Shown here: in pieces, positions 15,549 through 39,077 of the stretch
Numbering within the stretch: the first letter of the stretch is position 1
How the letters are laid out: each line of letters starts with the position of its first letter
Source of the DNA: a virus
Lineage: Duplodnaviria; Caudoviricetes
Strand: one strand, 5' to 3'
DNA: 64,000 nt
Virus record (IMG/VR): IMGVR_UViG_3300025934_000015
Location: 32,001-96,000 of that record
Notes under the pieces: generated by a model
The model's database searches: none
Seen by the model: the letters and a program-made list of their open reading frames with translations, nothing else
Told to the model about the DNA's origin: nothing
Made by a program: the position numbers and the translations under genes

Positions 15549-15745
15549 TCATCGTTCCCACGAGTACCGACTTGTGCCGGGCCCTGGAGGCGGAAGGCTT
15601 TCCGCTGCCGGACGAATGCGCGGACGTTTCCCTGCGCATGCCCGCCGACGGGGTCTTTCAACTGGTCTACACCGTGAACGTGAGCGGGACACGGCTTCAG
15701 CAACTCGGTCGCGCCCTGGAGCGCGTCGGCAAGACTCATGAGTAA
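15545..15745 (+). CDS. hypothetical protein
   Basis: GGAG RBS; ATGA coupling. Confidence 0.55.
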   Translation: MIIVPTSTDLCRALEAEGFPLPDECADVSLRMPADGVFQLVYTVNVSGTRLQQLGRALERVGKTHE

Positions 15746-18532: not shown

Positions 18533-18534
18533 CG

Positions 18535-22687: not shown

Positions 22688-23541
22688 GTCTCCTCCTTTT
22701 CTGGTCGCCACGCGCGGCAACAGGTGTTTACACCTATGACGGCGAGATTGCGTGTCAGTCGAGCGTCACGGCCCTCGTTGTCGCCCTGGTGGAACCCGTC
22801 ACGGCGATCGCCGCGCAGTCCACCGTCTCGTCACCGGTATCGTTTACAGCCGTTCCCGACGCGGTGATCGCGGCGCAGTTTGGTGTCGTCTCACCATACA
22901 GCTTCACGCACGAATTCGTCACGGCAGGCGAGATTGCGGCGCAGTCTACGGTGGAATCGGCGTACAGCTTTACGCCCTCGAACACGATTGAACTGATCGC
23001 GCGTCCCGGTATCATTTTGACGACGGGACAGGCAGGTCTGACGTATACGCCCGTGGCACGGCCGGACACGGGTGGTGGGGGCATGGCGTGGCCCACGCCG
23101 CAGCGTGTACGTCGCGTACGCCCGCGCGAGCGTGTACCCGTCCTCGTGCATCGGACAATCGTCGCGCGCCCCGCGCGCGTACGCGTGCATGGCTCGGTCT
23201 GCGCATTCTACTTCCGGCGGTCGATCGTCGCCGGACCAGGGACCGTGACGGTTCGGGGCGGGGCCGTCACGGGCACGCTGGTCCGCGCCATCGTGGCCGC
23301 GCGCCCAGCCGGTCGCCAGCCGGTCCCGGCGGTCCGTGGGACGTTCCAGCGGACCATCCTGGCCCGTCCGGTCATGGTCCTCAGCCGCGCGTCTGGGACG
23401 GTCCAGTACCAGTCCGGGGTTATGGCCCAGGTTGGCCGGGTCTTGACCAGTGGCGCGCCTGCAACGCTCACCATCTCCAAACACCCGCGCTACGAAACGA
23501 TGTTCGCTGACGAGGAGTGGCTGCTCATGGAGGTCGCATGA
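22684..23541 (+). CDS. putative virion protein (acidic N-half, Arg-rich C-half)
   Basis: MSLLLFW start; IAAQS repeats; IVA[RG]P repeats; DEEWLL end. Confidence 0.6.
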   Translation: MSLLLFWSPRAATGVYTYDGEIACQSSVTALVVALVEPVTAIAAQSTVSSPVSFTAVPDAVIAAQFGVVSPYSFTHEFVTAGEIAAQSTVESAYSFTPSNTIELIARPGIILTTGQAGLTYTPVARPDTGGGGMAWPTPQRVRRVRPRERVPVLVHRTIVARPARVRVHGSVCAFYFRRSIVAGPGTVTVRGGAVTGTLVRAIVAARPAGRQPVPAVRGTFQRTILARPVMVLSRASGTVQYQSGVMAQVGRVLTSGAPATLTISKHPRYETMFADEEWLLMEVA

Positions 23542-25679
23542 CCCTCGAGCGTTTGGCCCATCTCCGCGCGTTCGCGCGCGTGCGCGCCTTGCAGGCGCAC
23601 GAGGTGCTCCGCACGCTCCAGAATGGTGACGTCCATACGTTCTCATCCACACAGGTGGACTTGCCGGACTCCTTAGCCGATGCCGTGCGGAGTCTCCAGG
23701 TCCTCATTCCGCCTGACCATCTGACGGCAGACGGCTACGAAAAGCGTCCGCATGTGACGGTCAAGTACGGCATCCACGACACGTCCCCGAAGGCGGCATC
23801 GGCCCTGGTCTCCAACACGGGACCCATCACGATGACGTTAGGGCCGACGGGTGTGTTTGAGGCCGATGACTACGACGTCGTCTATGTGTCGGTGGACTCG
23901 GACGCCCTGCGCCAGCTCAATGCGAAGATTTCGGCGGGTGTGCCCGTGACCGACACGCATCCCGAGTACACGCCGCATGCGACGGTGGCGTACGTGGAGA
24001 AAGGCCTCGGGAAGATCTACGACGGCAATCCCACGTTGAATGGGATGACTGCCACGGTAGACGCGTTGCGGTTTATCTCGAAGGACGGGACCGAGACACT
24101 GATTCGGACGGCGGGTGGTCCAGGCTCGGGCAACTTCGGCCATGGTGGACGTCCAGGACAGATTGGTGGATCGTCGAGCGACGAGGGTGTCGTTCATAAA
24201 ATTACAGGTCCCGGCATTGGCGCAGGCATGGCGTCTTATGATCCTGCACGACCTGTTACCGTCCATCACACAGATAAGCGCGATCAGAATTTCGAGATCA
24301 CTGGTCCGACGACCGGCAAAGTGCTTGTGCATAAGGATGATCGGGGATTTGTCGTAACGGATGCCCGTGGAAAACATCCGGACGAAGGCGGACGTCGATT
24401 CACACGTGTGCACCACGCGTATGCCACGAAGGATGAAGCCCTGGCCGTAGCGATCAAGCTGGCCAAAACGCGTGTCAATGATCTCGAAAATGCACATGAG
24501 TGGCCCGACGATGACGACCTCGAAACATTGGGTGGTCCCGGTTCCGGCAACTTCGGCCATGCCGGACGTCCCGGCGAAGTCGGCGGATCGTCCTCCGAAG
24601 ACGGATCCTCATGGAAGGACCCGGGTGGACAGAACCACTCGGGCGTCACGTGGAAGCAGCCGACCGATCCGAAGACCGGCCGTCCCATTCCGATCAAAGT
24701 GGACACGGTGGAGGACGCGGTCAAGCTAGTCTCGGAAGGGAAAGTCGTCGAGGTCAAGGACGTCAAGTCCGCCTACACCCTGATCGATAAACTGGCCGAA
24801 CTGTCACAGCAGGCCAAGGCCAACACCGGCAAGGAAATCGATTACGACCTCTGTCAGGTGACGGTCGCCGGGACCAACATGTTTTGTACCGAGTCCTTGC
24901 GTGAGGCTAAGGTCGGGACGAAGGAGTATAAGGAAGGCGTCCCCCGGATCGAGATGCCACAGTTGGCCGGTCTGCCCGAACCCGGATCCGAAGCCGACAA
25001 CCTGCCGAAAAATGCCAAGGGTGAAGTGGACGCCAGCGCGCACTTTATCCACTTCCTCCAAGGCATCGGCATGAAGACGACCCACGAAGAAGTGCCTGCG
25101 GAAAAACTCCGCGCGTCACAGCGCGAGTTAGTGGGCCAGAACGTGGGCGGCATGATGCGGAACAAGGACTTCGATCCCGCCAAGGATCCGATCTTCATCT
25201 CCAGTGATAACTACGTGGTGGACGGCCACCACCGCTGGGCCGCAACCGTCGGGCGTGACGCGGAAGATGGCCACCTCGGGGACTCCACGATGAAGGTCCG
25301 CCGCATCAACGCGCCGATCTCTGAAGTGCTGCATCTGGCGAATGAGTATTCGAAGCGCTTCGGCATTAAACAGAAGGGTGTTGGCGCAGGCGCGCGGCAC
25401 GCGGGTGGTTCTGGCTCAGGGAACTTCGGTCATAGCGGACGCCCTGGAGAAGTGGGCGGATCGGCCAATAAGGACTTCGAGTCCTACATGACTGCCAATC
25501 CCCACAAGAGCACGTTCGAGATTGGCATCGAAATTCCGCTCGAACGCAAGGGCAAGCCACAGATGGCGAAGTTAGTCCGCAAGGAACATCACGGCGAGGA
25601 GTGGCGCATTCATAACGAACGAGGCCAATACGTCTATTCCGAAGGCTTCCGCTACGTGACTGAGCATCGCAAGAAATGA
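23538..25679 (+). CDS. polyvalent head-module protein A: Acb1-like 2H phosphoesterase, unknown domain, ParB/Srx-like domain, small domain; 3 tag copies
   Basis: GGAGG-N4-ATG overlapping the previous stop; HVT and HAT motifs; SQRE...DGHHRW; tags at 24114, 24531, 25404. Confidence 0.85.
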   Translation: MTLERLAHLRAFARVRALQAHEVLRTLQNGDVHTFSSTQVDLPDSLADAVRSLQVLIPPDHLTADGYEKRPHVTVKYGIHDTSPKAASALVSNTGPITMTLGPTGVFEADDYDVVYVSVDSDALRQLNAKISAGVPVTDTHPEYTPHATVAYVEKGLGKIYDGNPTLNGMTATVDALRFISKDGTETLIRTAGGPGSGNFGHGGRPGQIGGSSSDEGVVHKITGPGIGAGMASYDPARPVTVHHTDKRDQNFEITGPTTGKVLVHKDDRGFVVTDARGKHPDEGGRRFTRVHHAYATKDEALAVAIKLAKTRVNDLENAHEWPDDDDLETLGGPGSGNFGHAGRPGEVGGSSSEDGSSWKDPGGQNHSGVTWKQPTDPKTGRPIPIKVDTVEDAVKLVSEGKVVEVKDVKSAYTLIDKLAELSQQAKANTGKEIDYDLCQVTVAGTNMFCTESLREAKVGTKEYKEGVPRIEMPQLAGLPEPGSEADNLPKNAKGEVDASAHFIHFLQGIGMKTTHEEVPAEKLRASQRELVGQNVGGMMRNKDFDPAKDPIFISSDNYVVDGHHRWAATVGRDAEDGHLGDSTMKVRRINAPISEVLHLANEYSKRFGIKQKGVGAGARHAGGSGSGNFGHSGRPGEVGGSANKDFESYMTANPHKSTFEIGIEIPLERKGKPQMAKLVRKEHHGEEWRIHNERGQYVYSEGFRYVTEHRKK

Positions 25680-28600
25680 TTCAACTGCCACTGTCCCCAG
25701 ACGTCGGCGCGCGGGTGCTTACCCAGGCACTCCTGCGGCTTCGTCTGCTCGGCGGTCCCGGCAGTGGTAACTTCGGGCACAGTGGACGCCCGGGCGAAGT
25801 GGGCGGCTCCAGTGGTGAGCGACAACCCCAGGGCGATGAGGAAGACAACGATCTCAAGGCGCGTACCTTCTTCCATGGCACGCACTCGCTGAGTGTGCAG
25901 GACATTCTCCAACAGGGACTGTTAGTCGGCCATGCGGGGAAGATGTGGCCGAGTTTCTCCTCGCGCGAACATACATACATCACGACCGACCACGACAACG
26001 CGGAACACTGGGCCGAGTCGGCGGTGCAGAAAATGAAGATTGATCACCGGGATGCGGAGATCTATCCGGTGATTTTGACTGTGCGCGTGCCGCCCGAGTA
26101 CGCGCGACGTGTGGTGCAGGATTCCCACTTCCCTGAGCCCGGATCCCCGGCGCGGCAATTCAAAGGCAACATCCACCCCTCGTGGATCATCGGCGCGAAG
26201 ATGGGTGCGTGGGACGATGATGCGGACGGCATTGTATGGAAGGACGTATCGCGGTCGTCCCCGATGCCACGCGCCGCGGCGGACGCCGACACGATTATCC
26301 ACATTGTCCTGTTGCTGACGTCGAAGAAGTTGCGGACAGCCGGTGGTCCTGGCTCGGGCAACTTCGGCCACAGTGGACGCCCAGGACAGGTGGGCGGTTC
26401 TAGTAGCGCATTGACGGATAGCACAACGCATCCGGCCGACATGTCCTTCGAGCAGTTCCAAAAGCCTGTGCCGTTGCCTCCCGTTCCGGAGGGCCATATT
26501 CGGCTGTCGCATGTGACGTCCGCCGAGAATGTGCCGAACATTCTGCGCGAAGGGTTAAAGCAGTCCAAGTCGAAGGGGGCGTCCTACGGCGAGCCGAGTG
26601 TAGTCTGGGCCACGACGCATGGTGAGACGTGGGGCGGCGCACTGGACGCCAACGCCCGCGAAATCATTTTTGACATGCCGACGAAGGACGTCAGCAGTGC
26701 GGGCACACTGCATCGCATGGCGGATGTGCCGCCAGAGGCGATTGTCTCGGTGGAGCGCGCGGGATTTAGCGATGTGTCCACCGGCGCGTTGACCCTCCGG
26801 CAGGAACGGAAACACGAGGATCTGAACACGCGACGCCAGTACTGGGAAGCCTACCAGCGCGAGAAGCCCAAGTCGCCCCTGCCGTTCCGTCCGCCCGGCG
26901 TCTACGACGAGAAGGGGCGGTTGATTGCGCCGGTACAGTCGCAGCCGCACGCGCGGCCGTCCGGCCCGTGGGACATGAACCGTGCCGCCGGAGGTCCTGG
27001 CTCGGGAAACTTCGGCCACAGCGGACGTCCCGGACAAGTCGGCGGATCGACGTCTGGCGACGATGCGCGTATTGATAACCTCGAATCCTTCGACAAAATT
27101 CAGGTAGGCGACTACACGGTCCGTCGGGACATGTATGGCATGTGGGTCGTGTACAACGACCACAGTCACGCCGCGTTTGAGGATGCGCAGGGTGCCAAGC
27201 TGTACCTGCGGTCCAAACAGACGGCCGTGAACGCCGACCCGCATACGCTCGACGTGCCCGTGTCCATCTACCACAATTCGCCAGACCAGTTTGCGGAAAA
27301 TAAACCCACGTTTGGTGCGTACTTCGGGGATGAGCATTTCCTTAAGGCGTTTCCGAATGAATGGGGCGAGCACACGTATAAGGTCACACTGCCGAAGGGC
27401 AGTAAGGTGTTAGACCTGGGTAAGGATACGCCTGAGGCCCGGGAGTTTATGGCGACCGTGGCCGGGATTGCGTATCCGAAGGATCCTGGCATTGCGGACT
27501 GGCAAGCGCGACTTCGACAGGGCGATCCTGCGGCCAGTAGCTACGATGAATTCTACGAAGCGTGGACAGATAAGAAAAACATCCTCGGTGCGTTGAAACA
27601 GCACAAGGGCTACGATGCGGTCCGCTATCAGTCAGAGTACGTGTTGCCACCAGAGACCCTGAAGAAACTCAAGGGCACGAAACTGAAGACGGCGGAAGTG
27701 TTCAGGACGCTCGGTGGATCGGGGTCCGGTAATTTCGGCCACGCGGGACGGCCGGGTGAAGTTGGGGGATCGGTAACAGAGGGTGGACCTAACGGGGAAT
27801 CGGAGCCATTACACGCGGGCCCGCGTATTGGATTTGTAACCCCGACAGGTCAAGAACGTGTCGCTAGTAAAACCAGTGGCGGTATTGGTGGTTACGGTGA
27901 AGACCATACGGATCTTGCACGACGGTTGATGGACGATGAGAACGGCGGCGTACAACCGGCATTGAAACAGGGGTACTTACGCTATTGGGTGCGTAATGGC
28001 GAGATTGCACTCAACTTTAAGTCTGGTCAACCAAATACCGCATCTAACGCTCTTCGATTCATCAAGGAAAACGTTCAGGACGGCGATCGCATTTACCTCG
28101 ACATTGAACATCCCCATGGCGATAACGTTACGCTTGGAGGATTCTTCGACAACCCTCGTGAAGCCAATCAGGCGATCCGTCGTGCAGGTGGACTGAAAAC
28201 ACTTGGGGGCCCTGGCTCCGGTAACTTCGGCCACACCGGACGGCCCGGCGAAGTCGGCGGCTCCTCGGGTGGTGAACTGGGTCCGCGTCCAACGCCCATC
28301 AAGGTGTCGAAGGTCAAGGACGCCATCCCGCTCATCCTCCAGGGCAAAGTCGTCGAGCTGCCGAACGTCCGCAAGGTCAATGTGCTGATGCAGCGATTGG
28401 CCAAGATCGCGAAGGACGCCAAGCGACAGGGTAAGGACGCGCCCTCGTATGATGCGTGTCAGATCGTGGTGCCGGGGTCCAATATCTTCTGTGGTCAGCA
28501 CCTTGTGACCAAGGAATACCCTAACGGCATGCCCCGCATTGTCATGCCGCAGTTTGCTAGTGAACCGATTCCTGGAACGCCTGCCGATAAACTGCCGCGC

Positions 28601-31600
28601 GATGCGAAGGGAGTGGTCGATGCGGGTCCGGAATTTATTGATCATCTGGCATCACGCGGTATCACGAGTACACGTGTGGACGTCCCCTCGGCGTCCCTGC
28701 GGCCCAGTCAGGCGCAACTCGACGGTCCCAAAATCGCCAAGCGCATGGTCCAGAAGGACTACCGGCCCAGTAGTCCGATCTTTATCTCACGTGACGGTTA
28801 CATCGTGGATGGCCACCACCGTTGGGCAGCCGTGGTCGGCCGCGACGCCGAAGACGGACACTTAGGCGACTCCACGATCCGCGCCTACAAGATTGACGCG
28901 CCGATCAGCGAGATCCTGAACATTGCGAAGACCTGGACTAAGACCTTTGGGCTCGAACAGAAGGGGATTGGGCGCGCGGCTGGTGGACCCGGGAGCGGGA
29001 ATTTCGGCCATAGCGGACGGCCGGGTGAAGTCGGTGGATCGTCCAGTGAGGGCGGATCAGCCGTCACGAAAAGTACGCCGTTCAAACGATGGTTCAAACA
29101 ATCCAAAGTCGTCGACGCGGAAGGCAAACCGCTGGTCGTCTACCACGGTACGACGCATGACTTCGACACGTTTGAACCGGCGGGCTCGGATAAGTACAAC
29201 ATCGAATCCGACTTCGGCGCAGCCGCCTATTTCTCCAACTCCGCGTCGGATGTATCCGAAAACTACGCAGGTGTAGGGCCGGATCTCACGAGCCGTCTGG
29301 AACAGCGTGCCGACCAACTGACGAGCGAGAACGACGAGCTGGATCATGAGGCCGCACTGAAGCAGGCGCGCGAGGAGTTAGTGGGCCGGAGCGGCGCGCT
29401 GGGCGTGCCCGTCTATCTGTCGATGCAAAACCCCTTTGTGCTGGGGGACGCGTACGACGAGGATCATCCGGTCAAGGAAACCTACCTCACGCACGAGTAT
29501 GTCTACGACGATCCCAATGACCCCGATTCTGACATCGTGGGTGAGGAAGGCACGCTCGTCGACTTTATCACCGCGTTGAAGGATGAGGCTGGGCAGTTCC
29601 ACGATACCGAAGGCGTTGATGACTTCCTGACGAAGTTAGCGGATAACAGCTTTGATGGCATGCACGCCAGTGAACTCGACAAACTGTGGCGCACCACGGA
29701 AACGACTGCCTATGTGACCGACGATCAGGGGCGGCTGGCAGGCAACGAACTCTATCGACGTGCGCTGGAGCGCGCAGGGTTCGATGGCGTGATTGACCGC
29801 TCGGTCGATACGAAGTTTGGCTCGGCACGGCGCATTGGTAAGCAGATGATCGGTGTGACTGCCGATACCGAACATTACATCGTCTTCAAACCCCAGCAGA
29901 TTAAGTCCGCTATCGGGAATCGGAAGTTTAACCCGAAGAGTCCCGTGATCACGCTCGGTGGTCCGGGCTCCGGCAACTTCGGTCACGCCGGACGGCCCGG
30001 TGAAGTCGGGGGCTCTGGCGTAGGCGACAGTACCGCGCACTTACCGGAATCGGTCGCGTATGTCCTGCGGGCGCGCGAACAGAAATTAAAGGAACTTGAC
30101 TACGAAGCCGCCGCTATTCTCTCACCTACGGGCGAGGTGGTGAATTATATCTCCAGTTACGCGAAGGACTACATCACGATCGATGAAAAGTTGAAGCCAA
30201 GTTTGGCCGATACCATCTTTACCCACAATCATCCGGGCAGTAACGGTCTGAGTCTGGCGGACGGCGACGTGGCGGTTAACCTGAATATCCGCGAGATACG
30301 AGCGATTGGCGCGGATGGGCGTGTGCATAGTCTGCGACGCGAGGGCGACCGTTGGCCGGACAATTTTATGGCCCTGGTGCGTGTGGCGGACTATGAAACG
30401 CAAAAGACCTTTTCTGAGGAGATCCGCGCCGGACACATGACGATGCAGGAGGCCAATGCGAAGCACTACGATCATGTGTACGCAACGGCTGTAGCAAAAA
30501 TCCCTGGTGTCGCGTTCGTGATGGCTCCCAGTCTGCCGGTGGTCTCGGAGGTCCATGTCTGAGATCATTTTGATTGACGATCGTGAGTTCCGGATCCCGG
30601 TCTACACCGAGGAGAGTGTCCGCACACTCGGCGGTCCCGGCTCGGGCAACTTCGGCCACAGCGGACGCCCTGGCGAGGTGGGGGGCTCCGCGCCCGAGGA
30701 CGGACCGGCCATCGGTGGCAGCATCCGCGCGCAAAAAGAGGAAGGCGTGCGCCGCGTCGAAGCGCTCCTCGACAAGGCGGTCAAGTCGGCGGACTTTACG
30801 GTCGCGGGTGACGAGAGTTATACCGAAGACGATTTGACCTGGAGTGATTTCTCCAGTACGCAGCAGGATCGCGCATTTGAAAATTTCCGTGACCAGTCCT
30901 ATAACGAAGGCGTGGAGGTTGATGATAGCGAGATCATCAGTGACCTCTACAAGGACTTATACCGCGATAACGAGAAGGTCGTCGAGGAGGCTTCACAGAA
31001 GTTAATCGACGACATCAATAATCCGGAGTCCACGGTTCAGGCGTTTCAGCAGACGACCGAACTGCCGTTTACCACGGAGAGTGGCGAGCCCGCGCCGGTG
31101 GTGCAGCGGTTCTATCTCGATCCCGACACGATCGAAGCGGAAGAAGATACGGGCGATGGCGCGCCCCTCAATGAGGACGCCCTGCGTCTGACCAATGGTG
31201 AGGAGCTGACGCCCCAACAAAAAGAAGCCGTGGACATGCTCTGGTCCCATCACTACGAAGCGGAGATGGACAAGGCCAAGGAGCGGGTGACCGAGAGTGA
31301 CGAATACTCCGAGCGCCGCAATGAGTTAGAGTCTGAGGAGATCGATAGTCAGTGGAATAACATGTCCGACTCGAAGAAGATCGACTATCTCGATCAAAAC
31401 GACAAGGACGCTGCACTCGAAGAGAAGGCTGGTACCGGAACTGAAACCTTAGACAACTCCGAACCCGATAACTGGATTGTCGATACGGAAGTCGAGGAAT
31501 CCACCGGCCGCGCCACGGATGAGAGCAAGCGGGAGGACTACGACAAGACCCGCATTCTCGCGCGGAAGCTGGCCGAACTGCGCACATCGGAGATCCTAAC

Positions 31601-33584
31601 TGAACGCGGGTTAAGTACGACGGGCGCGGCGGACATTCCCCGCAGTGTGTGGGAGGCGTGGAAAGGATCGTCGACGAGCGACTTAGGATTGGCATTGCAG
31701 TTAGCCGCCGCGGAAGAACTCGGTGGACACCATCGGCTGAATGAGCGGGAAGTGAGTCACGCACGACAAATCGCGGATCAGCAATTTGGTATTCAGGTGC
31801 CGTTTGCAGATTTACCCAAGGCAACACAAGATCAGGCGCATGAACGCTACGTACGTGAATTTGCGGACTACGAGGTGCAGAGTTTCAAAACGCAAAACGA
31901 TAACGCAAAAGTGCCCTACACCGAAGCCGATGTCCAAGCCTACCGTCAGAAGGCGGAGGATCGGTGGGAAAAAGGGTGGGAGTCACTGTCTGGATATGGT
32001 AAGACGCAGTACGCGAAGGAAAAAGGTCTGGACCAGAATCAGTCCGGCATGGAGCGCCTGAAAGCCTACACCCGCGCGCAGTGGGAGACTACGCAATTCC
32101 TGATGGAGAAGGCCGAAAAGCCCTACGCGGAAGTCTATCGCGGTATCATTCTCCCCAAGGACGATCTCGACAAGACCACCAATCTGACGGTCCCGCATCC
32201 TGATCGACCGACATTCGCGACCGACGCCGATCGTGAGAAGTACGAAAAGTATTACAAGCAGAATCTGCCGGACTATGTGCAGCTCCCGGATATCGAGATC
32301 AAACGCAATGGTGCATCATCCACGTCATCGAATGCTGACGTGTCGAATAATTGGGGCGGCGCGGGTGGGTGGAAGGAACAGCCTCGGGGATCACAGCGCG
32401 TGGTCCTGCGCTTCCAGGCTCCGGCCACCTCGCTGATTTCGATTCCGGTGTTTGGCCAGAACCTGCACAACGAATCCGAGTACGTGCTGATCGGCACGAA
32501 GGACAAATGGAACTGGGACGCGTGGCGCGGCAAGGCCCCCACGTTCGAGCAGCATCCGATTGGCGGACGAAAGGTGTCTGGCGTGAAAGCGGCGGAAGAA
32601 AAGAAAATGCTCGTCATCGACATGGCCGAGCACGACAAGGGCCCGCACTGGTTGACCGAGTACCGGGACCAGCGCGCGAAACCCCGCTATGCCAAACGTC
32701 GGCCCGAGACGGCTGTCCACGCCGCGGCCGATGCGCATGTCGAAGTGATGCGGTCCGCGGCGGTCAAGGCCTTCAAGGCTGGACGCGCGGCGTTGAACGT
32801 GCCGCTCTTGCGGTCGGCACTGACCTCAGGCAATCGGACCAGGGCAGTCAAGGCCGTGGCTGCTGTCCCTGGTGCGATCCGCGCGAGCCTCCTGAAATCG
32901 TTGCCGGGTCTGCTGTTGAAGATGGCCGCGAAGGGCGGACAGGCGAGCCTCAACACCTTGCGCGTGCGTACGCGCACGATCCGGCATGCCGAACGACGCG
33001 CCGCGCGTGCGGCCGGTCTCGCAGAACCCCGCTACGCCGCCATCGAGTTTGACTGGGGCTTCGATGACAGTAATCCGCGCGCCCAGAAGTGGGCCCGTGA
33101 GCACGCCGCGGAGTTGGCTAAGGGCATTTCCGACACCACGCGGGACGATATTGCGGATGCCCTGGTCGCCGCGTTCGACGAAGGCGGCGATACCAATACG
33201 TTGATTGAATCCATTAGTGAAGCTGTAGGCGACGAGGATCGAGGCGAGTTGATTGCCGTGACGGAACCGATGATCGCTGTGCACGAAGGTCAACGCGAGG
33301 CATGGCGACAGGCAGTTGACGAAGGGGGACTGCCCCCGGACGCCCAGCGCGAATGGATCACGACCGGCGACATGAAGGTCTGTCCTGAGTGTGAGTCGTT
33401 AGAGGGCACGACCGCTGACGTGGACGGGCTCTATCCGGATCCTGGCGGCGAAGGCCCACCACTTCACCCTCGGTGCCGCTGCACGGAAGGTATTGCGGCC
33501 CCGCGTGCGCGCGGGCGCGGACTCGGCGGTCCCGGCAGTGGCAACTTCGGTCACGGCGGACGCCCTGGACAGATTGGTGGGTCA
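24114..33584 (+). repeat. 12 dispersed in-frame copies of the 20-aa tag GG[PS]GSGNFGHxGRPG[EQ][VI]GGS
   Basis: 60-nt copies start at 24114, 24531, 25404, 25751, 26342, 26990, 27713, 28205, 28982, 29957, 30630, 33525; third codon positions vary freely. Confidence 0.97.
25676..30562 (+). CDS. polyvalent head-module protein B: four ART-like domains, one ParB/Srx-like, one JAB-like, one unknown; 7 tag copies
   Basis: FHGT..I..GL; HVT..N..I..EGL; YHNS..GAYF..GYD..EY; VYHGT..YF..GFDG..VF.P.QIKS; DGHHRW; E..THNHP..S..D. Confidence 0.85.
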   Translation: MIQLPLSPDVGARVLTQALLRLRLLGGPGSGNFGHSGRPGEVGGSSGERQPQGDEEDNDLKARTFFHGTHSLSVQDILQQGLLVGHAGKMWPSFSSREHTYITTDHDNAEHWAESAVQKMKIDHRDAEIYPVILTVRVPPEYARRVVQDSHFPEPGSPARQFKGNIHPSWIIGAKMGAWDDDADGIVWKDVSRSSPMPRAAADADTIIHIVLLLTSKKLRTAGGPGSGNFGHSGRPGQVGGSSSALTDSTTHPADMSFEQFQKPVPLPPVPEGHIRLSHVTSAENVPNILREGLKQSKSKGASYGEPSVVWATTHGETWGGALDANAREIIFDMPTKDVSSAGTLHRMADVPPEAIVSVERAGFSDVSTGALTLRQERKHEDLNTRRQYWEAYQREKPKSPLPFRPPGVYDEKGRLIAPVQSQPHARPSGPWDMNRAAGGPGSGNFGHSGRPGQVGGSTSGDDARIDNLESFDKIQVGDYTVRRDMYGMWVVYNDHSHAAFEDAQGAKLYLRSKQTAVNADPHTLDVPVSIYHNSPDQFAENKPTFGAYFGDEHFLKAFPNEWGEHTYKVTLPKGSKVLDLGKDTPEAREFMATVAGIAYPKDPGIADWQARLRQGDPAASSYDEFYEAWTDKKNILGALKQHKGYDAVRYQSEYVLPPETLKKLKGTKLKTAEVFRTLGGSGSGNFGHAGRPGEVGGSVTEGGPNGESEPLHAGPRIGFVTPTGQERVASKTSGGIGGYGEDHTDLARRLMDDENGGVQPALKQGYLRYWVRNGEIALNFKSGQPNTASNALRFIKENVQDGDRIYLDIEHPHGDNVTLGGFFDNPREANQAIRRAGGLKTLGGPGSGNFGHTGRPGEVGGSSGGELGPRPTPIKVSKVKDAIPLILQGKVVELPNVRKVNVLMQRLAKIAKDAKRQGKDAPSYDACQIVVPGSNIFCGQHLVTKEYPNGMPRIVMPQFASEPIPGTPADKLPRDAKGVVDAGPEFIDHLASRGITSTRVDVPSASLRPSQAQLDGPKIAKRMVQKDYRPSSPIFISRDGYIVDGHHRWAAVVGRDAEDGHLGDSTIRAYKIDAPISEILNIAKTWTKTFGLEQKGIGRAAGGPGSGNFGHSGRPGEVGGSSSEGGSAVTKSTPFKRWFKQSKVVDAEGKPLVVYHGTTHDFDTFEPAGSDKYNIESDFGAAAYFSNSASDVSENYAGVGPDLTSRLEQRADQLTSENDELDHEAALKQAREELVGRSGALGVPVYLSMQNPFVLGDAYDEDHPVKETYLTHEYVYDDPNDPDSDIVGEEGTLVDFITALKDEAGQFHDTEGVDDFLTKLADNSFDGMHASELDKLWRTTETTAYVTDDQGRLAGNELYRRALERAGFDGVIDRSVDTKFGSARRIGKQMIGVTADTEHYIVFKPQQIKSAIGNRKFNPKSPVITLGGPGSGNFGHAGRPGEVGGSGVGDSTAHLPESVAYVLRAREQKLKELDYEAAAILSPTGEVVNYISSYAKDYITIDEKLKPSLADTIFTHNHPGSNGLSLADGDVAVNLNIREIRAIGADGRVHSLRREGDRWPDNFMALVRVADYETQKTFSEEIRAGHMTMQEANAKHYDHVYATAVAKIPGVAFVMAPSLPVVSEVHV

Positions 33585-34028
33585 TCTAGCGATGATGAAG
33601 GGGATGACGAAACGCCCGCCACGACCATTAGTGGGAAAGACCTTAAGGAAAACATGACCGGCGATCTGGCAGCCGTGGCCCAAAAGGTCTACGACGAGTG
33701 GCAGGTCGATCCGAATCAGCCGGAGAACGATGACCTCTGTGGTGGTGGGATTTGTCATCTGATTGCCGATGAAATGGTTGGCCATCTGTCAGACAAAGGC
33801 ATCGAGGCAACCACCGTCAGCTCGCAGATTGGGGAACAGCATGTCTGGGTCGTCGCGAAGTTAGCAGATGGTGTGTACTCCATCGACATCCCGCCCGGCA
33901 CGTACGAAACGGGCGGCGGTTATTCGTGGCAGAAAATTCCTGACGTGACGATCGATAAGCGGGACGTCGTGGTGGATCTCGTCTCTCCGAATCCCGAGAA
34001 GTTCACCGAGTTCACCGACGAGGGTTAA
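30555..34028 (+). CDS. MuF (SPP1 gp7-like) minor head protein C fused to an R-S-E ADP-ribosyltransferase and a C-terminal Cys-His-Asp domain; 2 tag copies
   Basis: YRG...SSTS...ESEY; WITTGD.KVCPEC..LEG...PPLHPRCRC; GICH...HVWV...ID. Confidence 0.88.
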   Translation: MSEIILIDDREFRIPVYTEESVRTLGGPGSGNFGHSGRPGEVGGSAPEDGPAIGGSIRAQKEEGVRRVEALLDKAVKSADFTVAGDESYTEDDLTWSDFSSTQQDRAFENFRDQSYNEGVEVDDSEIISDLYKDLYRDNEKVVEEASQKLIDDINNPESTVQAFQQTTELPFTTESGEPAPVVQRFYLDPDTIEAEEDTGDGAPLNEDALRLTNGEELTPQQKEAVDMLWSHHYEAEMDKAKERVTESDEYSERRNELESEEIDSQWNNMSDSKKIDYLDQNDKDAALEEKAGTGTETLDNSEPDNWIVDTEVEESTGRATDESKREDYDKTRILARKLAELRTSEILTERGLSTTGAADIPRSVWEAWKGSSTSDLGLALQLAAAEELGGHHRLNEREVSHARQIADQQFGIQVPFADLPKATQDQAHERYVREFADYEVQSFKTQNDNAKVPYTEADVQAYRQKAEDRWEKGWESLSGYGKTQYAKEKGLDQNQSGMERLKAYTRAQWETTQFLMEKAEKPYAEVYRGIILPKDDLDKTTNLTVPHPDRPTFATDADREKYEKYYKQNLPDYVQLPDIEIKRNGASSTSSNADVSNNWGGAGGWKEQPRGSQRVVLRFQAPATSLISIPVFGQNLHNESEYVLIGTKDKWNWDAWRGKAPTFEQHPIGGRKVSGVKAAEEKKMLVIDMAEHDKGPHWLTEYRDQRAKPRYAKRRPETAVHAAADAHVEVMRSAAVKAFKAGRAALNVPLLRSALTSGNRTRAVKAVAAVPGAIRASLLKSLPGLLLKMAAKGGQASLNTLRVRTRTIRHAERRAARAAGLAEPRYAAIEFDWGFDDSNPRAQKWAREHAAELAKGISDTTRDDIADALVAAFDEGGDTNTLIESISEAVGDEDRGELIAVTEPMIAVHEGQREAWRQAVDEGGLPPDAQREWITTGDMKVCPECESLEGTTADVDGLYPDPGGEGPPLHPRCRCTEGIAAPRARGRGLGGPGSGNFGHGGRPGQIGGSSSDDEGDDETPATTISGKDLKENMTGDLAAVAQKVYDEWQVDPNQPENDDLCGGGICHLIADEMVGHLSDKGIEATTVSSQIGEQHVWVVAKLADGVYSIDIPPGTYETGGGYSWQKIPDVTIDKRDVVVDLVSPNPEKFTEFTDEG

Positions 34029-34181
34029 ATGGACATTACCATCAACGGCCAACACGGTATCGTCACGTACTGGGATAGTAAGTGGCATCTGGCCGATCAG
34101 CCACAGGCGGTCATGGCCCAAGTACGGTTCGACGATGGCCGTGTGGTGTTGTATCACGTGAACGCGCTTCCACACAAGTGA
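34029..34181 (+). CDS. small hypothetical protein (50 aa)
   Basis: GAGGG RBS; abuts both neighbours; not in the ORF track. Confidence 0.5.
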   Translation: MDITINGQHGIVTYWDSKWHLADQPQAVMAQVRFDDGRVVLYHVNALPHK

Positions 34182-34435: not shown

Positions 34436-34436
34436 C

Positions 34437-35210: not shown

Positions 35211-35363
35211 ATGGGATTACTTGAAGTGTTGATCCTTGTGATCTTCCTGCTATGGCTGGCAGGCTTTGGATTCGGCGTGGCCGGATCCTTGATCCACGTC
35301 CTGCTGATCCTTCTAATCATTCTCGTCATTGTGCGATTACTTCAAGGACGGAACGTACTATGA
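35211..35363 (+). CDS. lmo0937/DUF5670-like small membrane protein
   Basis: LLWLAGF....GSLIHVLL.......RLLQGR signature; GAGGAG RBS. Confidence 0.75.
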   Translation: MGLLEVLILVIFLLWLAGFGFGVAGSLIHVLLILLIILVIVRLLQGRNVL

Positions 35364-37579
35364 TCAAAAAAGAGGGCGAGAAGTGGATCCTCTATACCAA
35401 AGACGGATCCAAGAAACTCGGCACGCACGATTCCGAAGGCGACGCGAAGAAACAAGAAGCCGCCATCGAAGCCAGTAAGCATCGTGCGGCAGCGGACGCT
35501 GAGCACTTTCGCGCGTTGGTGGCGAATCTCGATGTGACCACCCTGGCGCGGAAGCCGAACAAGGACGAACACCCCTTCACGTACTGCATGCAGGTCGTGG
35601 TTCCGGCCATCGAAGAGAAACAGGGCGCGATGGACAATCCGGAGGCGTTCTGTGGCTGGTGGAAGGGCGAGCACGCATACGAAGCCGCGCAGGCCAAGAC
35701 CCTGGAGGGTAAGGAGTCTCGCACGGTCCATCTGATGGGCGCGACCGGTCAGATTCGCACGGCGACGTTTGAAAACAAGGATTACATGGTGGTCCCGGTC
35801 GTGGCCCTCATGGAGGGCGTGATTCACGCCATCAACGCCGAAACGCCGGAGTACGTGCCGCTGGCGTGTCTCGCGTGCGCGCCGCAGGGATGGGACGGTC
35901 GCCCGGTGGTCCTTGGCCATCCCGTGAGAGACGGTCATCAGATTTCCGCCAATTCACCAGAAGTCCTCGAATCGCAGTCCTTTGGTCGAATCTTCGGTGC
36001 GCGCCTCGACGGCAAGAAGTTGATGCTGGAGGCGTGGATCGATCCGGTCAAGGCGGAGCGCATCGGCGCGCAGGAGATTGTCACCAAGCTGCGCGAAAAC
36101 AAGATGTGCGAAGTGTCCGTCGGAGCCTTCGTGGTGACGGACAAAACCGCAGGCATGTATGGCGACAAGCCCTACAAAGCAGTCTGGCGGGACATCGTGC
36201 CGGACCACTTGGCCTTTCTCCCCAAGGGCATTGGTGCGTGCAGCAACGAAATGGGCTGCGGATCCCCGCGGACGGCCATGGCCCATCTGATTACCGCCGA
36301 GGGCTTCGAGACCTTGGCGTTTCCCTTCCAGAAAAAGGAGGACACCGCGGACACCGATTGGGCCGCGAAAGCCGATGCCGCTGAAGCGGCCGCGACGAAA
36401 GCGGAGAAGGCGGGAGATACCACCGAAGCGGCTAAGCAACAGAAGTTGGCCAAGGAGTATCGAACGAAGGCCAAGGCCATGAAGGCTGCACAGTACGGCG
36501 ATACGCCAAATGAAGCAGCCTCCGAGGAGAAGGCGGAGCTGATTGCCTACCAGACCATGCGCACGCTGTGCGACCAGATTGGCGAGTCGTACGATGCCAT
36601 TTCCGAAATCGTCGACGAGCTGATTGCCGACGAAGCCGACAACCCAACGCAGACTCCCGCCGAGGAGGCTGCGGAAACCGAAGTGGAGACCGCTCGGCTG
36701 GAGTCGCTACAAGTGCTGTGCATGTCCCAGTACAGCACGCTCAACGCCCTCATGAGTCTCACCACGGATTGTCTGCGGCCGGAACCGGCACCAGACGTGG
36801 CTCCGCGGTACATGGCGGGAGCACGCCACTCCGCCACCGATCGACAAATCATCCAGCGCGTTCACGACCACGCGGTGTCGTTGGGCGCAGAGTGTAGCGG
36901 CATGGAGGCCCGAGCCGCTGAAACACCGCGTGCCGATTCATCCACGCAACAGCCGGTCCCCGTACCGGCGGAGGTACGAGACATGGCTTGCACATGCGGA
37001 AAAACCACAAAAGGAGAGGCGATGAACAAGGAGCAGCGTACGGAACTCATCAAGACGCTATGCGCCGACAAGCATAGTGGGTTCACCGAAGCCGATTCCA
37101 AGATGTTGGAAGCGGCTCCCGACGAACGACTCGAATCCTTCCGTGTCGCTGCTGCGGCGCGGGCCAAGGAGGTCGAGGAGAAGACCAAGCCCGCGACCGA
37201 ACCGGCACCGAAAGTCGCGGAATCGAAGCCCCTCACCGAGGACGACTTCATGAAGGTCGCCCCGGATTCGCTCAAGTCGCTCATCGCCCGCGCGCAGGCG
37301 CAGGATGCCGCCCACAAGACCACGCTCGTCGCGGACCTCAAGACCGCGCAGAGCGAGTACTCGGAATCGGAACTCGCGGCTATGTCCATCGACGCCCTGG
37401 AGCGTCTGAGCCGCGCGATCGGCCGTCAGGTCGAGCAGCCGACGTCGTACGCCGGGCGTGGTGTGCCGCGCGCCGCTGCCGCGCCGGAGAAGGACGTGTA
37501 CACGAATCCGCCGAACCCCTACGAAGAGGGGCTGAAGAAGCTGCGCGCCTCCAGCGGGTTCGCGGAACAGACCGCGTAA
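35360..37579 (+). CDS. DUF2213-like prohead protease/scaffold
   Basis: PVV..MEGV, PVVLGHP, EVSVG, PDHLAFLP..IGACS...GCG; acidic helical scaffold C-terminus; upstream of decoration and capsid genes. Confidence 0.85.
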   Translation: MIKKEGEKWILYTKDGSKKLGTHDSEGDAKKQEAAIEASKHRAAADAEHFRALVANLDVTTLARKPNKDEHPFTYCMQVVVPAIEEKQGAMDNPEAFCGWWKGEHAYEAAQAKTLEGKESRTVHLMGATGQIRTATFENKDYMVVPVVALMEGVIHAINAETPEYVPLACLACAPQGWDGRPVVLGHPVRDGHQISANSPEVLESQSFGRIFGARLDGKKLMLEAWIDPVKAERIGAQEIVTKLRENKMCEVSVGAFVVTDKTAGMYGDKPYKAVWRDIVPDHLAFLPKGIGACSNEMGCGSPRTAMAHLITAEGFETLAFPFQKKEDTADTDWAAKADAAEAAATKAEKAGDTTEAAKQQKLAKEYRTKAKAMKAAQYGDTPNEAASEEKAELIAYQTMRTLCDQIGESYDAISEIVDELIADEADNPTQTPAEEAAETEVETARLESLQVLCMSQYSTLNALMSLTTDCLRPEPAPDVAPRYMAGARHSATDRQIIQRVHDHAVSLGAECSGMEARAAETPRADSSTQQPVPVPAEVRDMACTCGKTTKGEAMNKEQRTELIKTLCADKHSGFTEADSKMLEAAPDERLESFRVAAAARAKEVEEKTKPATEPAPKVAESKPLTEDDFMKVAPDSLKSLIARAQAQDAAHKTTLVADLKTAQSEYSESELAAMSIDALERLSRAIGRQVEQPTSYAGRGVPRAAAAPEKDVYTNPPNPYEEGLKKLRASSGFAEQTA

Positions 37580-37622: not shown

Positions 37623-38060
37623 ATGGCTATTGTGAAGTATCCGCCCAACACCATCTGGCTCGGTGGCGGCATGACGGTCGTCAACGACGTCGCCGCGGGC
37701 GCGGCGTTCAATCCGGGCCATCTCATCGAGCGCTACAACTCGTCGGGCACGCCGCTGTTCCGCAAGCACTCCACCGCAGGCGGCGCGGCAGCGGCGATCT
37801 TCGGCCTGAACCAGTCCATGCTGAACAAAGGCGTGGATGACGCGTACGCAATCGGTGACCTCGTCGAAGCGGGCATCATGGCCAAGGGCGCGCTGGTCTG
37901 GGCGCTCATCGGCGTGCTGACGGTCGTGCAGGGCGACAAGCTGGAGTCAGCGGGCAATGGCACGCTGCGTCTGCTGGCCGCGGGTATTGCCATCGCCATC
38001 GCGGCGGAAGGCAAGGTTGGCGCCTCGGGTGAAACCCGCGTGCGCGTCGAGATCCTCTAA
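37623..38060 (+). CDS. head decoration/cement protein
   Basis: Ala/Gly-rich; PGHLIE, AYAIGD, GDKLESAGNGTL; between scaffold and MCP. Confidence 0.75.
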   Translation: MAIVKYPPNTIWLGGGMTVVNDVAAGAAFNPGHLIERYNSSGTPLFRKHSTAGGAAAAIFGLNQSMLNKGVDDAYAIGDLVEAGIMAKGALVWALIGVLTVVQGDKLESAGNGTLRLLAAGIAIAIAAEGKVGASGETRVRVEIL

Positions 38061-38090: not shown

Positions 38091-39077
38091 ATGAGGTTTC
38101 AAGTCAACGATCACGATCATCCGCTCCAGACCGCGCTCCTGCGGGCAGCGGAACAGACAGGCGAGCTGTCCATCGCATCGCTTCGGTCACTGTCACCGCT
38201 TTCCGATAAGGCCCAGGTACTCGTCGACCGTGCGGTCGTCAGCGTGGGCCTTCAGCGCCTCGTCGTCGCGGCCGACGTCATGGCGGCAGGCCTGACCTAT
38301 CCGCTCACCGATCCGTTGTCGGTGACACAGCTCGAATGGGAATCCATCTCGAAGACCGGCGGGGCACAGCGCACCATGAACCCGTCGGCGCGTGGTGAAT
38401 TCCAATTGCCCAACCGTTCGATCAATCGGCTGCCGATTTATCTGACGACCGACGACTTCAGCCTTGGCATTCGCACGCTGAAGATGTCGCAGCGCGTCGG
38501 TCAGCCGCTCGACACGACCCTGGTGGAACAGGCGACGCGCCGCGTCAACGAGGCCATCGAGGACGCGATGATCAACGGCTCGGGTCTTGTCGTGGGTGGC
38601 TACGGTGCGCCTGGCATCTTGAACGCGCCGAATGCGAACACGTACGACATCACGGTGAACTGGAACGCGGGCGCGACCGGCGACCAGATCCGAGTGGATA
38701 CTATGGCGATGATCAGCCTGTTGCAGGCCGATCTGAAGTTCGGCCCGTACAACTTGTACGTCGGCACGGCGTATGGCAACGCGCTTACGGCCGACTTCAA
38801 GGCCAATGGCGATAAGTCCATCATTGCCCGCCTGCAGGAAATTCAGGCCGGTGGTCGTGGTCTTCAGATCAAGGTGGCGGACCAGATGCCGACGACGACG
38901 GTCGCGCTGATCCAGATGACCAGCGACACGATCGAAATGGTCGTGGGTCAGCCGCCCACGGTCATTCCATGGACCAGCCTTGACGGGTTCACCCTCTTCT
39001 GGTTGGTCATGGCCATCATGGTCCAGCGCGTGCGCTCGGATTACGACGGCAACTCCGGCATCGTTATCGCCACGTAA
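38091..39077 (+). CDS. major capsid protein (HK97 fold, encapsulin/linocin-related phage family)
   Basis: VDRAVV.V...RL..AAD....GL; LP......F.LGIR.L..S; FGPY.LYV; RSDYDGNSGI; AAGGA RBS. Confidence 0.88.
   Translation: MRFQVNDHDHPLQTALLRAAEQTGELSIASLRSLSPLSDKAQVLVDRAVVSVGLQRLVVAADVMAAGLTYPLTDPLSVTQLEWESISKTGGAQRTMNPSARGEFQLPNRSINRLPIYLTTDDFSLGIRTLKMSQRVGQPLDTTLVEQATRRVNEAIEDAMINGSGLVVGGYGAPGILNAPNANTYDITVNWNAGATGDQIRVDTMAMISLLQADLKFGPYNLYVGTAYGNALTADFKANGDKSIIARLQEIQAGGRGLQIKVADQMPTTTVALIQMTSDTIEMVVGQPPTVIPWTSLDGFTLFWLVMAIMVQRVRSDYDGNSGIVIAT

Follow-up and report, generated by a model that had tools for sequence, protein, structure and literature searches.

The closest described counterparts of the locus analysed here are the polyvalent proteins, for which Iyer et al. 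2017 proposed delivery together with DNA and cutting into units, with an embedded Zn-metallopeptidase (MPTase), frequent but not obligatory, as the processing enzyme (PMC5512222). No shared inter-domain peptide is mentioned in the text of that study, where the words "linker" and "glycine" have 0 occurrences each (PMC5512222). Processing of packaged proteins is known from T4, whose internal proteins and Alt carry a capsid-targeting sequence and are cut by gp21 in the prohead (PMC3012670, PMC9958956), and from the phiKZ-like giant phage SPN3US, in which gp245 processes many packaged proteins at a short motif and also cuts itself (PMC10052503). The propeptides that this prohead protease removes from the N-termini of SPN3US ejection/inner-body proteins are either short, at 20 and 24 aa, or long (PMC10052503). 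The MuF polymorphic toxins of temperate phages were described by Jamet et al. 2017 without a conserved junction peptide ("linker", "glycine" and "cleavage" have 0 occurrences each; PMC5576092).

The window, i.e. the whole 64,000-nucleotide stretch that we analysed from the 120,838-bp genome of an uncultured phage, contains a head module with the order portal, genes A-B-C, protease-scaffold, decoration protein, and major capsid protein (MCP); all features given here lie on the + strand. Family matches identify the portal protein (Phage_portal_3, 15738..17561), the head decoration protein (37623..38060) and the MCP (DUF6260 / encapsulin-like HK97 fold, 38091..39077). The original prediction had placed A, B and C between the portal and the prohead protease, which holds for their order, with ~6 kb of other ORFs separating the portal from gene A; the ORFs after C (34082-35209) match no informative family. 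In line with the translational coupling claimed for the three genes, start and stop codons overlap at each boundary: ATGA joins the upstream ORF to A and likewise A to B, and ATGTCTGA joins B to C. Gene A (23538..25679) encodes 713 aa, also in the collection's own gene call (P0006), and comprises an untagged 2H phosphoesterase module and three modules preceded by a 20-residue peptide, termed here the tag. Gene B (25676..30562, 1628 aa) comprises seven tagged modules, and gene C (30555..34028, 1157 aa) a tagged 945-aa module (C1), which ends in a MuF domain, and a tagged module of 147 aa. Thus, the three chains carry 13 modules, 12 of them behind a tag, and the modules between or after tags span 71 to 945 aa, the upper limit (C1) lying well above the 70-640 aa given originally. 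In both B and C the first tag is preceded by a 25-aa leader, a feature absent from the earlier description.

Analysis of the individual modules reveals several families. Module A1 (23538..24113), the only untagged one, is a 2H phosphoesterase of the 2'-5' RNA ligase superfamily (PF13563, E 1.8e-13); its match to Acb1 is weak (PF23474, E 0.002, under the cut-off of that family). Module A3 (24591..25403) is ParB/sulfiredoxin-like, with a DGHHRW motif (phrog_2859), and shares 65% identity with the final module of P0038, a protein of another phage that is fused to a portal, and 50% with its paralogue B5 (28265..28981). Module B6 (29042..29956) is a polyvalent-protein ADP-ribosyltransferase (ART-PolyVal; PF18760, E 2.3e-18). 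Module B7 (30017..30559) has no match in Pfam and is termed JAB/RadC-like from its motif alone (HNHPGSNGLSLAD), with atlas leads at 0.77-0.89 only. The SPP1 gp7-type MuF head-morphogenesis domain (33147..33485; PF04233, E 6e-9) occupies residues 865-977 of protein C and is followed by a tag at residue 991 and the 147-aa module. Most of the modules of A-C have no recognisable family in Pfam, and therefore the "12 effectors" of the original prediction are an assumption; likewise, a role in "first-minute takeover" of the host was deduced solely from the kinds of domains present.

As in phage-type polyvalent proteins, several unrelated effector-type domains are joined on each chain, the hallmark ART-PolyVal, MuF, 2H, and ParB-like domains (the ParB of the described type being DdrB-like) are present, and the genes are flanked by those of virion proteins (portal, protease-scaffold, decoration protein, MCP). 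A, B and C are phage-type polyvalent proteins with 2H phosphoesterase, ART-PolyVal, MuF and ParB-like modules, and both the Pfam/PHROG domains and the flanking head genes agree with the earlier view of them as capsid-cargo polyproteins of the head module. Protein C resembles the MuF toxins in having a variable C-terminal module after MuF, but here MuF ends a 945-aa module, and most of the cargo resides on chains without MuF. A further trait of MuF toxins is a neighbouring cognate immunity gene, a position occupied here by the ORFs after C that match no informative family. Polyvalent proteins with such modules are already known; the recurrent inter-domain tag appears to be undescribed.

The pattern GG[PS]GSGNFGH.GRPG[EQ][VI]GGS matches twelve times, exactly as originally claimed (three times in A, seven in B and two in C), and neither a six-frame scan of the window nor a pattern scan of the whole genome returned further copies. 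The tags of A are located at 24114..24173, 24531..24590 and 25404..25463 (tags 1 to 3), preceded by IRTA, LETL and ARHA, respectively. Those of B (tags 4 to 10) are located at 25751..25810 (preceded by LRLL, after the leader), 26342..26401 (LRTA), 26990..27049 (NRAA), 27713..27772 (FRTL), 28205..28264 (LKTL), 28982..29041 (GRAA) and 29957..30016 (VITL), and those of C (tags 11 and 12) at 30630..30689 (VRTL, after the leader) and 33525..33584 (GRGL, immediately 3' of the MuF domain). The amino-acid identity among the twelve tags is 91% vs an identity of 0.45 (expected 0.29) at third codon positions; their Ser codons switch between TCN and AGY, and all Gly and Arg codons are in use among 218 tags of other phages. 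This scrambling of third codon positions points to selection on the peptide; the tag is a conserved peptide under selection and not a DNA repeat. We found no model matching it in Pfam, NCBIfam or PHROG, and no description of it in the searchable literature.

The tag is widespread, occurring in thousands of phages and in 4,159 protein clusters, and is nearly confined to viral DNA (>114 IMG/VR stretches vs 41 stretches in 185,579 cellular genomes). As was to be checked according to the original prediction, its carriers are almost all portal, MuF or protease-scaffold proteins or free cargo, and it precedes very diverse domains. Among ten tag-bearing proteins from cellular genomes that were scanned, six are fusions of a portal to NUDIX and toxin domains. 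We found no cultured phage that carries the tag. In a set of 185 proteins with 523 tags, the tag is never C-terminal (the shortest tail is 22 aa, the 10th percentile 161 aa), and the typical protein has a short leader followed by a tag, the first tag starting at a median position of residue 48. The tag-bearing phages differ in their MCP, portal and protease families. Of its 20 residues, 16 do not vary between phages whose head proteins are unrelated, and cleavage alone leaves this unexplained.

The residues that precede the tag agree with the triplets listed in the original prediction: P1 is A or L in all twelve copies (chance about 2e-10 from composition), P3 is R or K in ten (2e-8; the exceptions are ETL and ITL), and P2 is T in seven (1e-6). 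The motif [RK]x[AL] itself carries little information and has ~70 further occurrences in A-C. At the first Gly of the tag the information rises from 1.7 to 4.3 bits, which defines a sharp N-terminal boundary. Five classes of preceding residues are seen across lineages, namely [RK]x[AL], K, N, D and ER, and the residue before the tag is identical in 73% of within-protein pairs vs 27% expected (the same 185 proteins and 523 tags).

A candidate for the enzyme acting at these sites is the protease-scaffold protein (35360..37579, 739 aa), which consists of a small N-terminal domain, a DUF2213 protease fold, and a long acidic helical tail; the ORF opens at 35252 (775 aa), and the true start is probably the ATG at 35360. 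The earlier assignment of a prohead protease at this position is supported by an AF2 model of the DUF2213 domain (pLDDT 78.6). At E <= 0.001 this model matches nothing in the PDB but the T4 gp21 prohead protease, 5JBL, in three of its chains (E 6.5e-6, prob 1.0, TM 0.54-0.64). H74, S140 and H170, invariant in an alignment of six sequences, are the candidate catalytic residues. Just past the protease fold, in a tail modelled with pLDDT < 50, lies the candidate self-release site R-T-A (36269..36277), which reads R-[TA]-A in all seven proteins of the [RK]x[AL] class. A candidate maturation site, R-A-A (37469..37477, context GRGxPRAA), is located near the C-terminal end of the scaffold part, ~33 aa before it, and is present as [R]-x-A in 5 of 7 homologues. 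The MCP has a conserved R-[AS]-[ALM] near residues 17-20. The precursor of herpesvirus assemblin has the order protease-linker-scaffold, with release and maturation sites that have Ala at P1. The likeness, i.e. a protease fold first, a small-residue site after it, another near the C-terminus, and Ala at P1, is limited to fold and layout, and the sites of the phage protein are putative; to our knowledge, herpesviruses have no cargo modules or tags.

The original prediction had also proposed a check of whether the residues before the tag co-vary with the capsid cleavage site of each phage, and a match was found in two lineages: directly past the protease fold, all 7 proteins examined from the [RK]x[AL] class have R-[TA]-A, and all 12 from the D class have [IL]-x-D with G/S/T behind it. 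Canonical DUF2213 was detected in 14/15 D-class phages and divergent DUF2213 in 5/7 [RK]x[AL]-class phages; in K- and N-class phages DUF2213 was detected in 0/8 and no protease was found in either class. The match between the residue before the tag and the protease junction of the same lineage supports cleavage by the head protease, and the tag probably marks the sites at which this enzyme frees each packaged module. The comparison spans two lineages, in which protease, portal and MCP types all shift together with the P1 class, and therefore common descent could account for part of the covariation.

This match bears on two alternatives in which the head protease does not cut. The tag may be just a conserved flexible spacer on whole polyvalent chains that are packaged and injected uncut; transfer without processing has precedents in the N4 vRNAP and in some conjugative polyvalent proteins (PMC5512222), and the tag's Gly-rich sequence and pLDDT of ~30, in a low-confidence model, would fit. 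We regard this as quite improbable, since a spacer needs neither the invariant N, F, H, R and P nor a sharp N-terminal boundary, nor, in front of it, a residue that is specific to the lineage and agrees with the protease junction, nor the leaders of B and C. Still more doubtful, and in our estimate highly improbable, is processing by autocatalysis (Asn-dependent, N-x-x-H) or by a cargo-embedded peptidase (the JAB-like B7, or an MPTase). N7 and H10 of the tag are invariant, and their spacing is that of NPTH, the autocleavage site of FlhB/EscU. However, a cut within the tag would leave the lineage-specific match of P1 and protease junction unexplained, and a peptide of 20 residues with predicted disorder offers no folded structure that could put strain on a bond. 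As for an embedded peptidase, the HxHx6SxxD motif of B7 speaks for it, but JAB modules are not a general feature of tagged proteins, a motif scan of the three proteins found no HExxH, and none of them matches a peptidase family in Pfam. In this, A-C are unlike the phage-type polyvalent proteins with MPTase, and their sites match the prohead protease instead.

The protease-scaffold homologues bear on whether the tag assists cutting. In one of them (G012) a tag directly follows the conserved junction R-A-A, and in P0028 and G026 it lies 6 to 17 residues past the junction. It is thus conceivable that the tag is a prime-side docking element, which the head protease needs for cargo unheld by the scaffold and which has no later role; the first residue of the tag invariably falls on P1', and, being Gly-rich and possibly disordered (pLDDT ~30 in a poor model with a mean of 54), it could suit a narrow groove. 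We consider this explanation unlikely. Five of the seven homologous protease-scaffold junctions have the P-side motif without a tag, and should these junctions be cut, cutting does not require the tag; moreover, 20 conserved residues far exceed the subsite use of a protease, and the tag stays the same between lineages whose protease families differ or escape detection.

Alternatively, the tag may be a cargo-loading peptide, comparable to encapsulin targeting peptides or to the capsid-targeting sequence of T4, that binds the inner face of the HK97-fold shell, the scaffold or the portal and brings A and B into the prohead, cleavage being secondary. The loading peptides of encapsulins are attached to unrelated cargo enzymes; short and rich in Gly, they are conserved although the HK97-fold shells themselves diverge. 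They provide a precedent that the tag resembles in length, Gly content and occurrence on unrelated modules (binding to the shell being hypothetical here), but they are usually C-terminal, one per protein, and different in sequence. A and B, although encoded within the head module, have no MuF or portal domain, the tag lies ahead of the protease domain in P0028, P0058 and G026, and the MCP of the phage with A-B-C also matches the encapsulin family. Against this, portal-fused cargo keeps its tag, where a targeting signal would be redundant, and the MCP, portal and protease families vary among tagged phages, leaving no evident conserved partner; we find loading improbable. Protease-scaffold junctions without downstream cargo are also without a tag, and together with the tagged portal-fused cargo this argues for a function of the tag on the cargo and against one in cutting or targeting. 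Since it occurs only ahead of cargo, we favour a role after cleavage.

The reading we prefer, with modest confidence and from sequence comparison, is that A, B and C are capsid-cargo polyproteins cut by the head protease at [RK]x[AL] before each tag, and that the tag acts after cleavage. The polyproteins would be made along with the head and carried in the capsid, where the assemblin/gp21-like protease (the N-terminal half of the 35360-37579 protein) would cut them inside the prohead at hydrophobic-[RK]-x-[AL] | GG, the same kind of site as that of its own release from the scaffold. The predicted products are the leader peptides of B and C (25 aa each) and some 13 individual modules, 12 of the modules retaining GGxGSGNFGHxGRPGxxGGS and a short Gly/Ser/acidic spacer as a new disordered N-terminus. 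This proposed cleavage resembles that in T4, where the prohead protease trims packaged cargo including an ADP-ribosyltransferase and anti-defence proteins. The T4 signal, however, is N-terminal of the cut, discarded, ends in L/I-x-E, and is limited to T4-like phages, whereas the tag lies after the proposed cut (with A/L rather than E at P1), would remain with the cargo, recurs within polyproteins, and is common to unrelated head lineages. In SPN3US the motif likewise ends in Glu and the substrates are separate paralogous proteins whose products have no common tag, unlike the bead-on-string polyproteins A-C.

In our interpretation the P-side residues would be the lineage-specific signal for the protease, and the 20-mer a lineage-independent label moving with the cargo cassette. 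Its likeliest job after cleavage, a guess among a few options, would be to hold the freed module in place or to lead it out with the DNA at infection. A broader possibility, which we put forward tentatively and hold to be rather doubtful, is that the tag is a universal portable cargo label, common to thousands of phages whose portals, proteases and capsid proteins are unrelated and whose hosts span many bacterial phyla and perhaps archaea. The N-terminus exposed by the head protease would then decide the fate of the freed module, i.e. retention on DNA or shell, or exit via portal and tail into the host, and any domain placed behind a local protease site and the tag would become an injected protein.

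Three long ORFs of 713, 1628 and 1157 aa, termed here genes A, B and C (23538-25679, 25676-30562 and 30555-34028, respectively), occupy positions 23538-34028 of the + strand, and the start codon of each overlaps the stop codon of the preceding ORF (ATGA at 23538 for A, ATGA at 25676 for B and ATGTCTGA at 30555 for C, all on the + strand). A regular-expression scan recovered in them the 12 copies of the 20-aa peptide GG[PS]GSGNFGHxGRPG[EQ][VI]GGS (the "tag") described in the original prediction, of which A carries three, B seven and C two; no further copy turned up in a six-frame scan of the window or in a pattern scan of the whole source record, a 120,838-bp IMG/VR virus with CheckV completeness of 100%. 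The tags divide the three chains into 13 modules of 71-945 aa and two 25-aa leaders, at the start of B and at the start of C. The residues preceding each tag, counted backwards from its first Gly as P1, P2 and P3, were likewise reproduced: P1 is Ala or Leu in 12/12 cases (approximately 2e-10 by composition), P3 is Arg or Lys in 10/12 (2e-8), and P2 is Thr in seven of the 12.

The 12 tags exhibit 91% identity at the peptide level, but only 45% identity at third codon positions (29% expected), and their Ser codons alternate between TCN and AGY. Because the third positions are scrambled while the peptide is preserved, the tag must be maintained by selection on the peptide; for the same reason both a recent DNA duplication as the source of the repeats and a DNA-level recombination joint at the tags are ruled out. 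Gly12 of the tag is encoded by GGA in all 12 copies (e.g. 24147-24149), with GGA making up only 16% of the Gly codons in A-C. A nucleotide-level signal at this position was considered and rejected, since GGA accounts for only 29% of the codons there in 218 tags of other phages, and hence we regard it as a quirk of this genome.

The neighborhood of A-C is a head module, comprising a portal protein (Phage_portal_3, 15738-17561), a 775-aa ORF with a DUF2213 domain (35252-37579, with the true start probably at 35360), referred to here as the protease-scaffold protein, a decoration protein, and a major capsid protein (MCP) of the encapsulin-like/DUF6260 type (38091-39077). Pfam searches identified a 2H phosphoesterase at the start of gene A (with a sub-threshold match to Acb1), ART-PolyVal in gene B, and a MuF domain that ends the 945-aa module of gene C. 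Two ParB-like paralogues, the modules A3 and B5, which exhibit 50% identity, share one PHROGs family and a DGHHRW motif. For ten other modules Pfam returned no family at E <= 1, only noise matches; among the modules of gene B, B7 (30017-30559) possesses a JAB-like HxHx6SxxD motif and weak atlas leads. The leader of B (25676-25756) ends with LLRLRLL-GG, resembling the ubiquitin tail LRLRGG, and B7 is JAB-like by motif; the likeness of the leader to ubiquitin is probably a coincidence. By domain content and context, A-C belong to the phage-type polyvalent proteins named by Iyer et al. 2017 (PMC5512222), who proposed an embedded metallopeptidase as the processing enzyme and did not mention a shared inter-domain peptide; in contrast to that proposal, A-C contain no HExxH motif. 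Between the portal and the cargo genes there are two further repetitive ORFs on the + strand. A 927-aa ORF (19464-22247), without any Pfam or PHROG family, contains about nine irregularly spaced copies of GTFWQATQP[VI]SG and a 33-nt tandem repeat (20838-20918), and a 285-aa ORF (22684-23541), for which no family was found, contains repeated units of the "IAAQSTVxSxxSFT" and "IVARPxxV" types. The latter is probably co-translated with the cargo genes, as its stop codon overlaps the ATG of gene A.

The tag is widespread. A search with the back-translated GNFGHxGRPG pattern found at least 114 IMG/VR stretches with at least 185 copies, up to nine per contig among the matches listed, and searching 1.84 billion cluster representatives with a profile built from the window's 12 tags retrieved 4,159 proteins (E <= 1e-3), 769 of them at E <= 1e-10, with up to nine tags in some. 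In metagenomic proteins the tag is accompanied by a wide range of domains (ARTs, Zeta-toxin kinases, GNATs, Fic, RelA/SpoT, ParB, 2H/Acb1, topoisomerase-like, MuF, portal, DUF2213, Mu gpI-like and S78_2 protease), which bears out the expectation that it precedes diverse domains. In line with its predicted restriction to head modules, the tag is nearly confined to viruses: one genome each of 185,579 prokaryotic species yielded only 41 stretches matching the pattern, including ones from Lachnospiraceae, Oscillibacter, Chitinophagaceae, Sphingomonas, Chloroflexi, CPR and a few archaeal MAGs, and six of the ten tagged proteins scanned from cellular genomes are portals extended by NUDIX, the tag and a toxin domain (Ntox50 or DUF4258), the same ten including one MuF protein and one ART. 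Portal fusions with the tag also occur on prophage-like contigs from cultured or isolate genomes, such as those of Candidatus Desulfosporosinus nitrosoreducens PR (L130) and Lachnospiraceae isolate B55_55_CC_H (L152). In a Terriglobus MAG contig (L145, 1751-4600, - strand) we found a tagged MuF protein with an apparent intein splicing domain after MuF (PF14890, E 8e-7, below the cut-off of that family). No model in Pfam, NCBIfam or PHROG covers the tag, and none of the papers searched by motif or by descriptive words mentions it. A megablast search with 21 kb of sequence found no near relative among 50,697 phage records; tblastn with a 30-aa tag window against the same records gave no match, a result uninformative on cultured phages, with the low-complexity filter as the likely cause. 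The best cultured matches of module B6 are from Myxococcus phage Mx1 and a Tunturiibacter phage; Mx1 has no tag even with two mismatches allowed, and cluster look-ups of tagged proteins sourced from NCBI led to MAG records only.

Comparison of 716 unique tags, limited to positions not fixed by the search pattern, shows that G1, S5, G18, G19 and S20 are conserved in about 100%, P14 in 94% and F8 in 92%; the information content is 1.7 bits at the position immediately preceding the tag and jumps to 4.3 bits at G1, and the tag is followed by five or six Gly, Ser, Pro or acidic residues. In 185 proteins the first tag begins at residue 48 and the inter-tag spacing is 200 aa (medians), and the tag is never C-terminal (shortest tail 22 aa, 10th percentile 161 aa); the tag therefore goes with the domain downstream of it. 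Sequence identity shows one cargo cassette moving from carrier to carrier: A3 shares 65% identity with the final module of P0038, which sits behind a tag on a portal protein, and is thus closer to it than to its own paralogue B5. In a complete 74-kb phage (G016, the record behind contigs L022 and L040), several separate small genes open with M-K-L-x-[ILM]-R-F-K directly followed by the tag (tagged genes e.g. at 7474-8625, 16847-19535 and 72111-72779), and internal tags are preceded by [VA]-I-R-L-K; in this phage the cargo is distributed over genes of one module each, headed by a leader of 8 residues. Two other proteins (P0054, ~518-533, and P0058, ~303-317) contain a degenerate tag-like motif, G-D-[RK]-x-G-H-x-F-H-G-N-Q-[WY], after a [T]-L site behind a portal or protease domain; this motif may be a further junction peptide related to the tag.

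The residue before the tag is lineage-specific: in 73% of within-protein pairs the two tags are preceded by the same residue (27% expected), and tagged phages fall into the classes [RK]x[AL] (which includes the phage studied here), K, N, D and ER, G016 belonging to class K. Among 32 long tag-bearing viral records, a canonical DUF2213 is present in 14/15 phages of the D class and a divergent one in 5/7 of the [RK]x[AL] class, and DUF2213 was found in 0/8 of the K and N classes. In the latter two, a search for Peptidase_S78 gave one weak match in 16, a search for S78_2 gave none, and two complete genomes scanned with PHROG yielded the terminase but no protease.

An alignment of the protease-scaffold protein with six homologs of the [RK]x[AL] class revealed R-[TA]-A directly after the fold (GACSxEMGCG) in 7/7 sequences, with P-R-T-A | M in this phage. 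In one homolog (G012) the tag follows directly after the junction R-A-A; the junction and tag are separated by six residues in P0028 and by about 17 in G026, another homolog, and the protease and scaffold parts of P0028 are separated by three cargo modules, all preceded by a tag. Approximately 33 residues from the C-terminus, 5/7 sequences have a second R-x-A (GRGxPRAA); P0028 has K-H-A-R-A-A followed by the tag, and this phage has K-H-R-A-A at the same place without the tag. The protease-scaffold protein shares the layout of assemblin-type precursors, in which the protease is followed by a release site and the scaffold has a maturation site close to its end. In the D class, 12/12 protease-scaffolds have [IL]-x-D at the junction after the protease fold, the next residue being G, S or T. 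The P1 and P3 residues at the junctions are those found before the tags of the same lineage, and the anticipated co-variation of P1-P3 with the cleavage site is seen in two lineages, on which the match is based, with no protease found in the K and N classes. Taken by itself, the motif [RK]x[AL] is weak, and common descent contributes to the match, because the P1 class varies in concert with the families of portal, MCP and protease. In 5/5 MCPs of the [RK]x[AL] class, residues ~14-21 comprise two hydrophobic residues and R-[AS]-[ALM] (at residues 17-20) followed by E/Q, which as weaker evidence would be consistent with loss of a propeptide of approximately 20 aa.

No match to the protease-scaffold protein was obtained by sequence search of the PDB. 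The AF2 model of its residues 150-348 (6-sequence alignment, pLDDT 78.6) has a single significant fold match in the PDB, the prohead protease gp21 of T4 (5JBL, E 6.5e-6, probability 1.0, TM 0.54-0.64); a His, a Ser (within an EVSVG motif) and another His are invariant in the DUF2213 alignment, and the tail carrying P-R-T-A is disordered in the model.

We propose that the head protease would cut the cargo, leaving the tag as the new N-terminus of each freed module, where it would serve in retention or as a flexible leader for exit with DNA. We consider this mechanism as a whole, which draws on sequence comparisons, slightly better than an even bet: confidence is high in the architecture, moderate in the predicted cleavage, and low in the role of the tag. 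The tag may instead be a prime-side docking element for the protease, but the junctions of cargo-less protease-scaffolds carry the P-side motif without it, so that cleavage, should it occur there, does not require the tag. It may also be a cargo-loading peptide, but it is retained on portal-fused cargo, which argues against a simple entry ticket. Our favored guess is that the tag acts after cleavage; its partner must be generic, such as DNA, the exit channel, a fold that head parts have in common or the chemistry of the tag itself, because the same tag occurs in phages with different portal, protease and capsid families. In an AF2 model of A3 flanked by two tags, poor overall (mean pLDDT 54), the tags have pLDDT of about 30, and a complex prediction for the protease domain (1-180) with a tag window scored 0.02, which counts neither way.

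The proposed mechanism resembles the processing of T4 internal proteins, of phiKZ/SPN3US ejection proteins, which are processed by the prohead protease (PMC10052503), and of assemblin precursors. The novelty lies in a peptide with sharp boundaries and almost no variation that stands in front of cargo modules in thousands of phages of different head lineages, and in its pairing with a lineage-specific site that, at the level of sequence, matches the head protease junction. To our knowledge, how phages load, hold and inject proteins is largely unknown outside T4 internal proteins, P1 Dar, N4 vRNAP and P22 ejection proteins, and the dismantling of polyvalent proteins has so far been conjecture only. 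The peptide at the start of each cargo module, together with the lineage-specific protease site, would offer a concrete hypothesis of polyprotein processing in capsids, testable by mass spectrometry, and a simple sequence rule by which injected effectors and anti-defense enzymes could be recognized in metagenomes, including modules without a known family. If the label suffices by itself, laboratory systems would gain a candidate handle for packing proteins of choice into phage heads.
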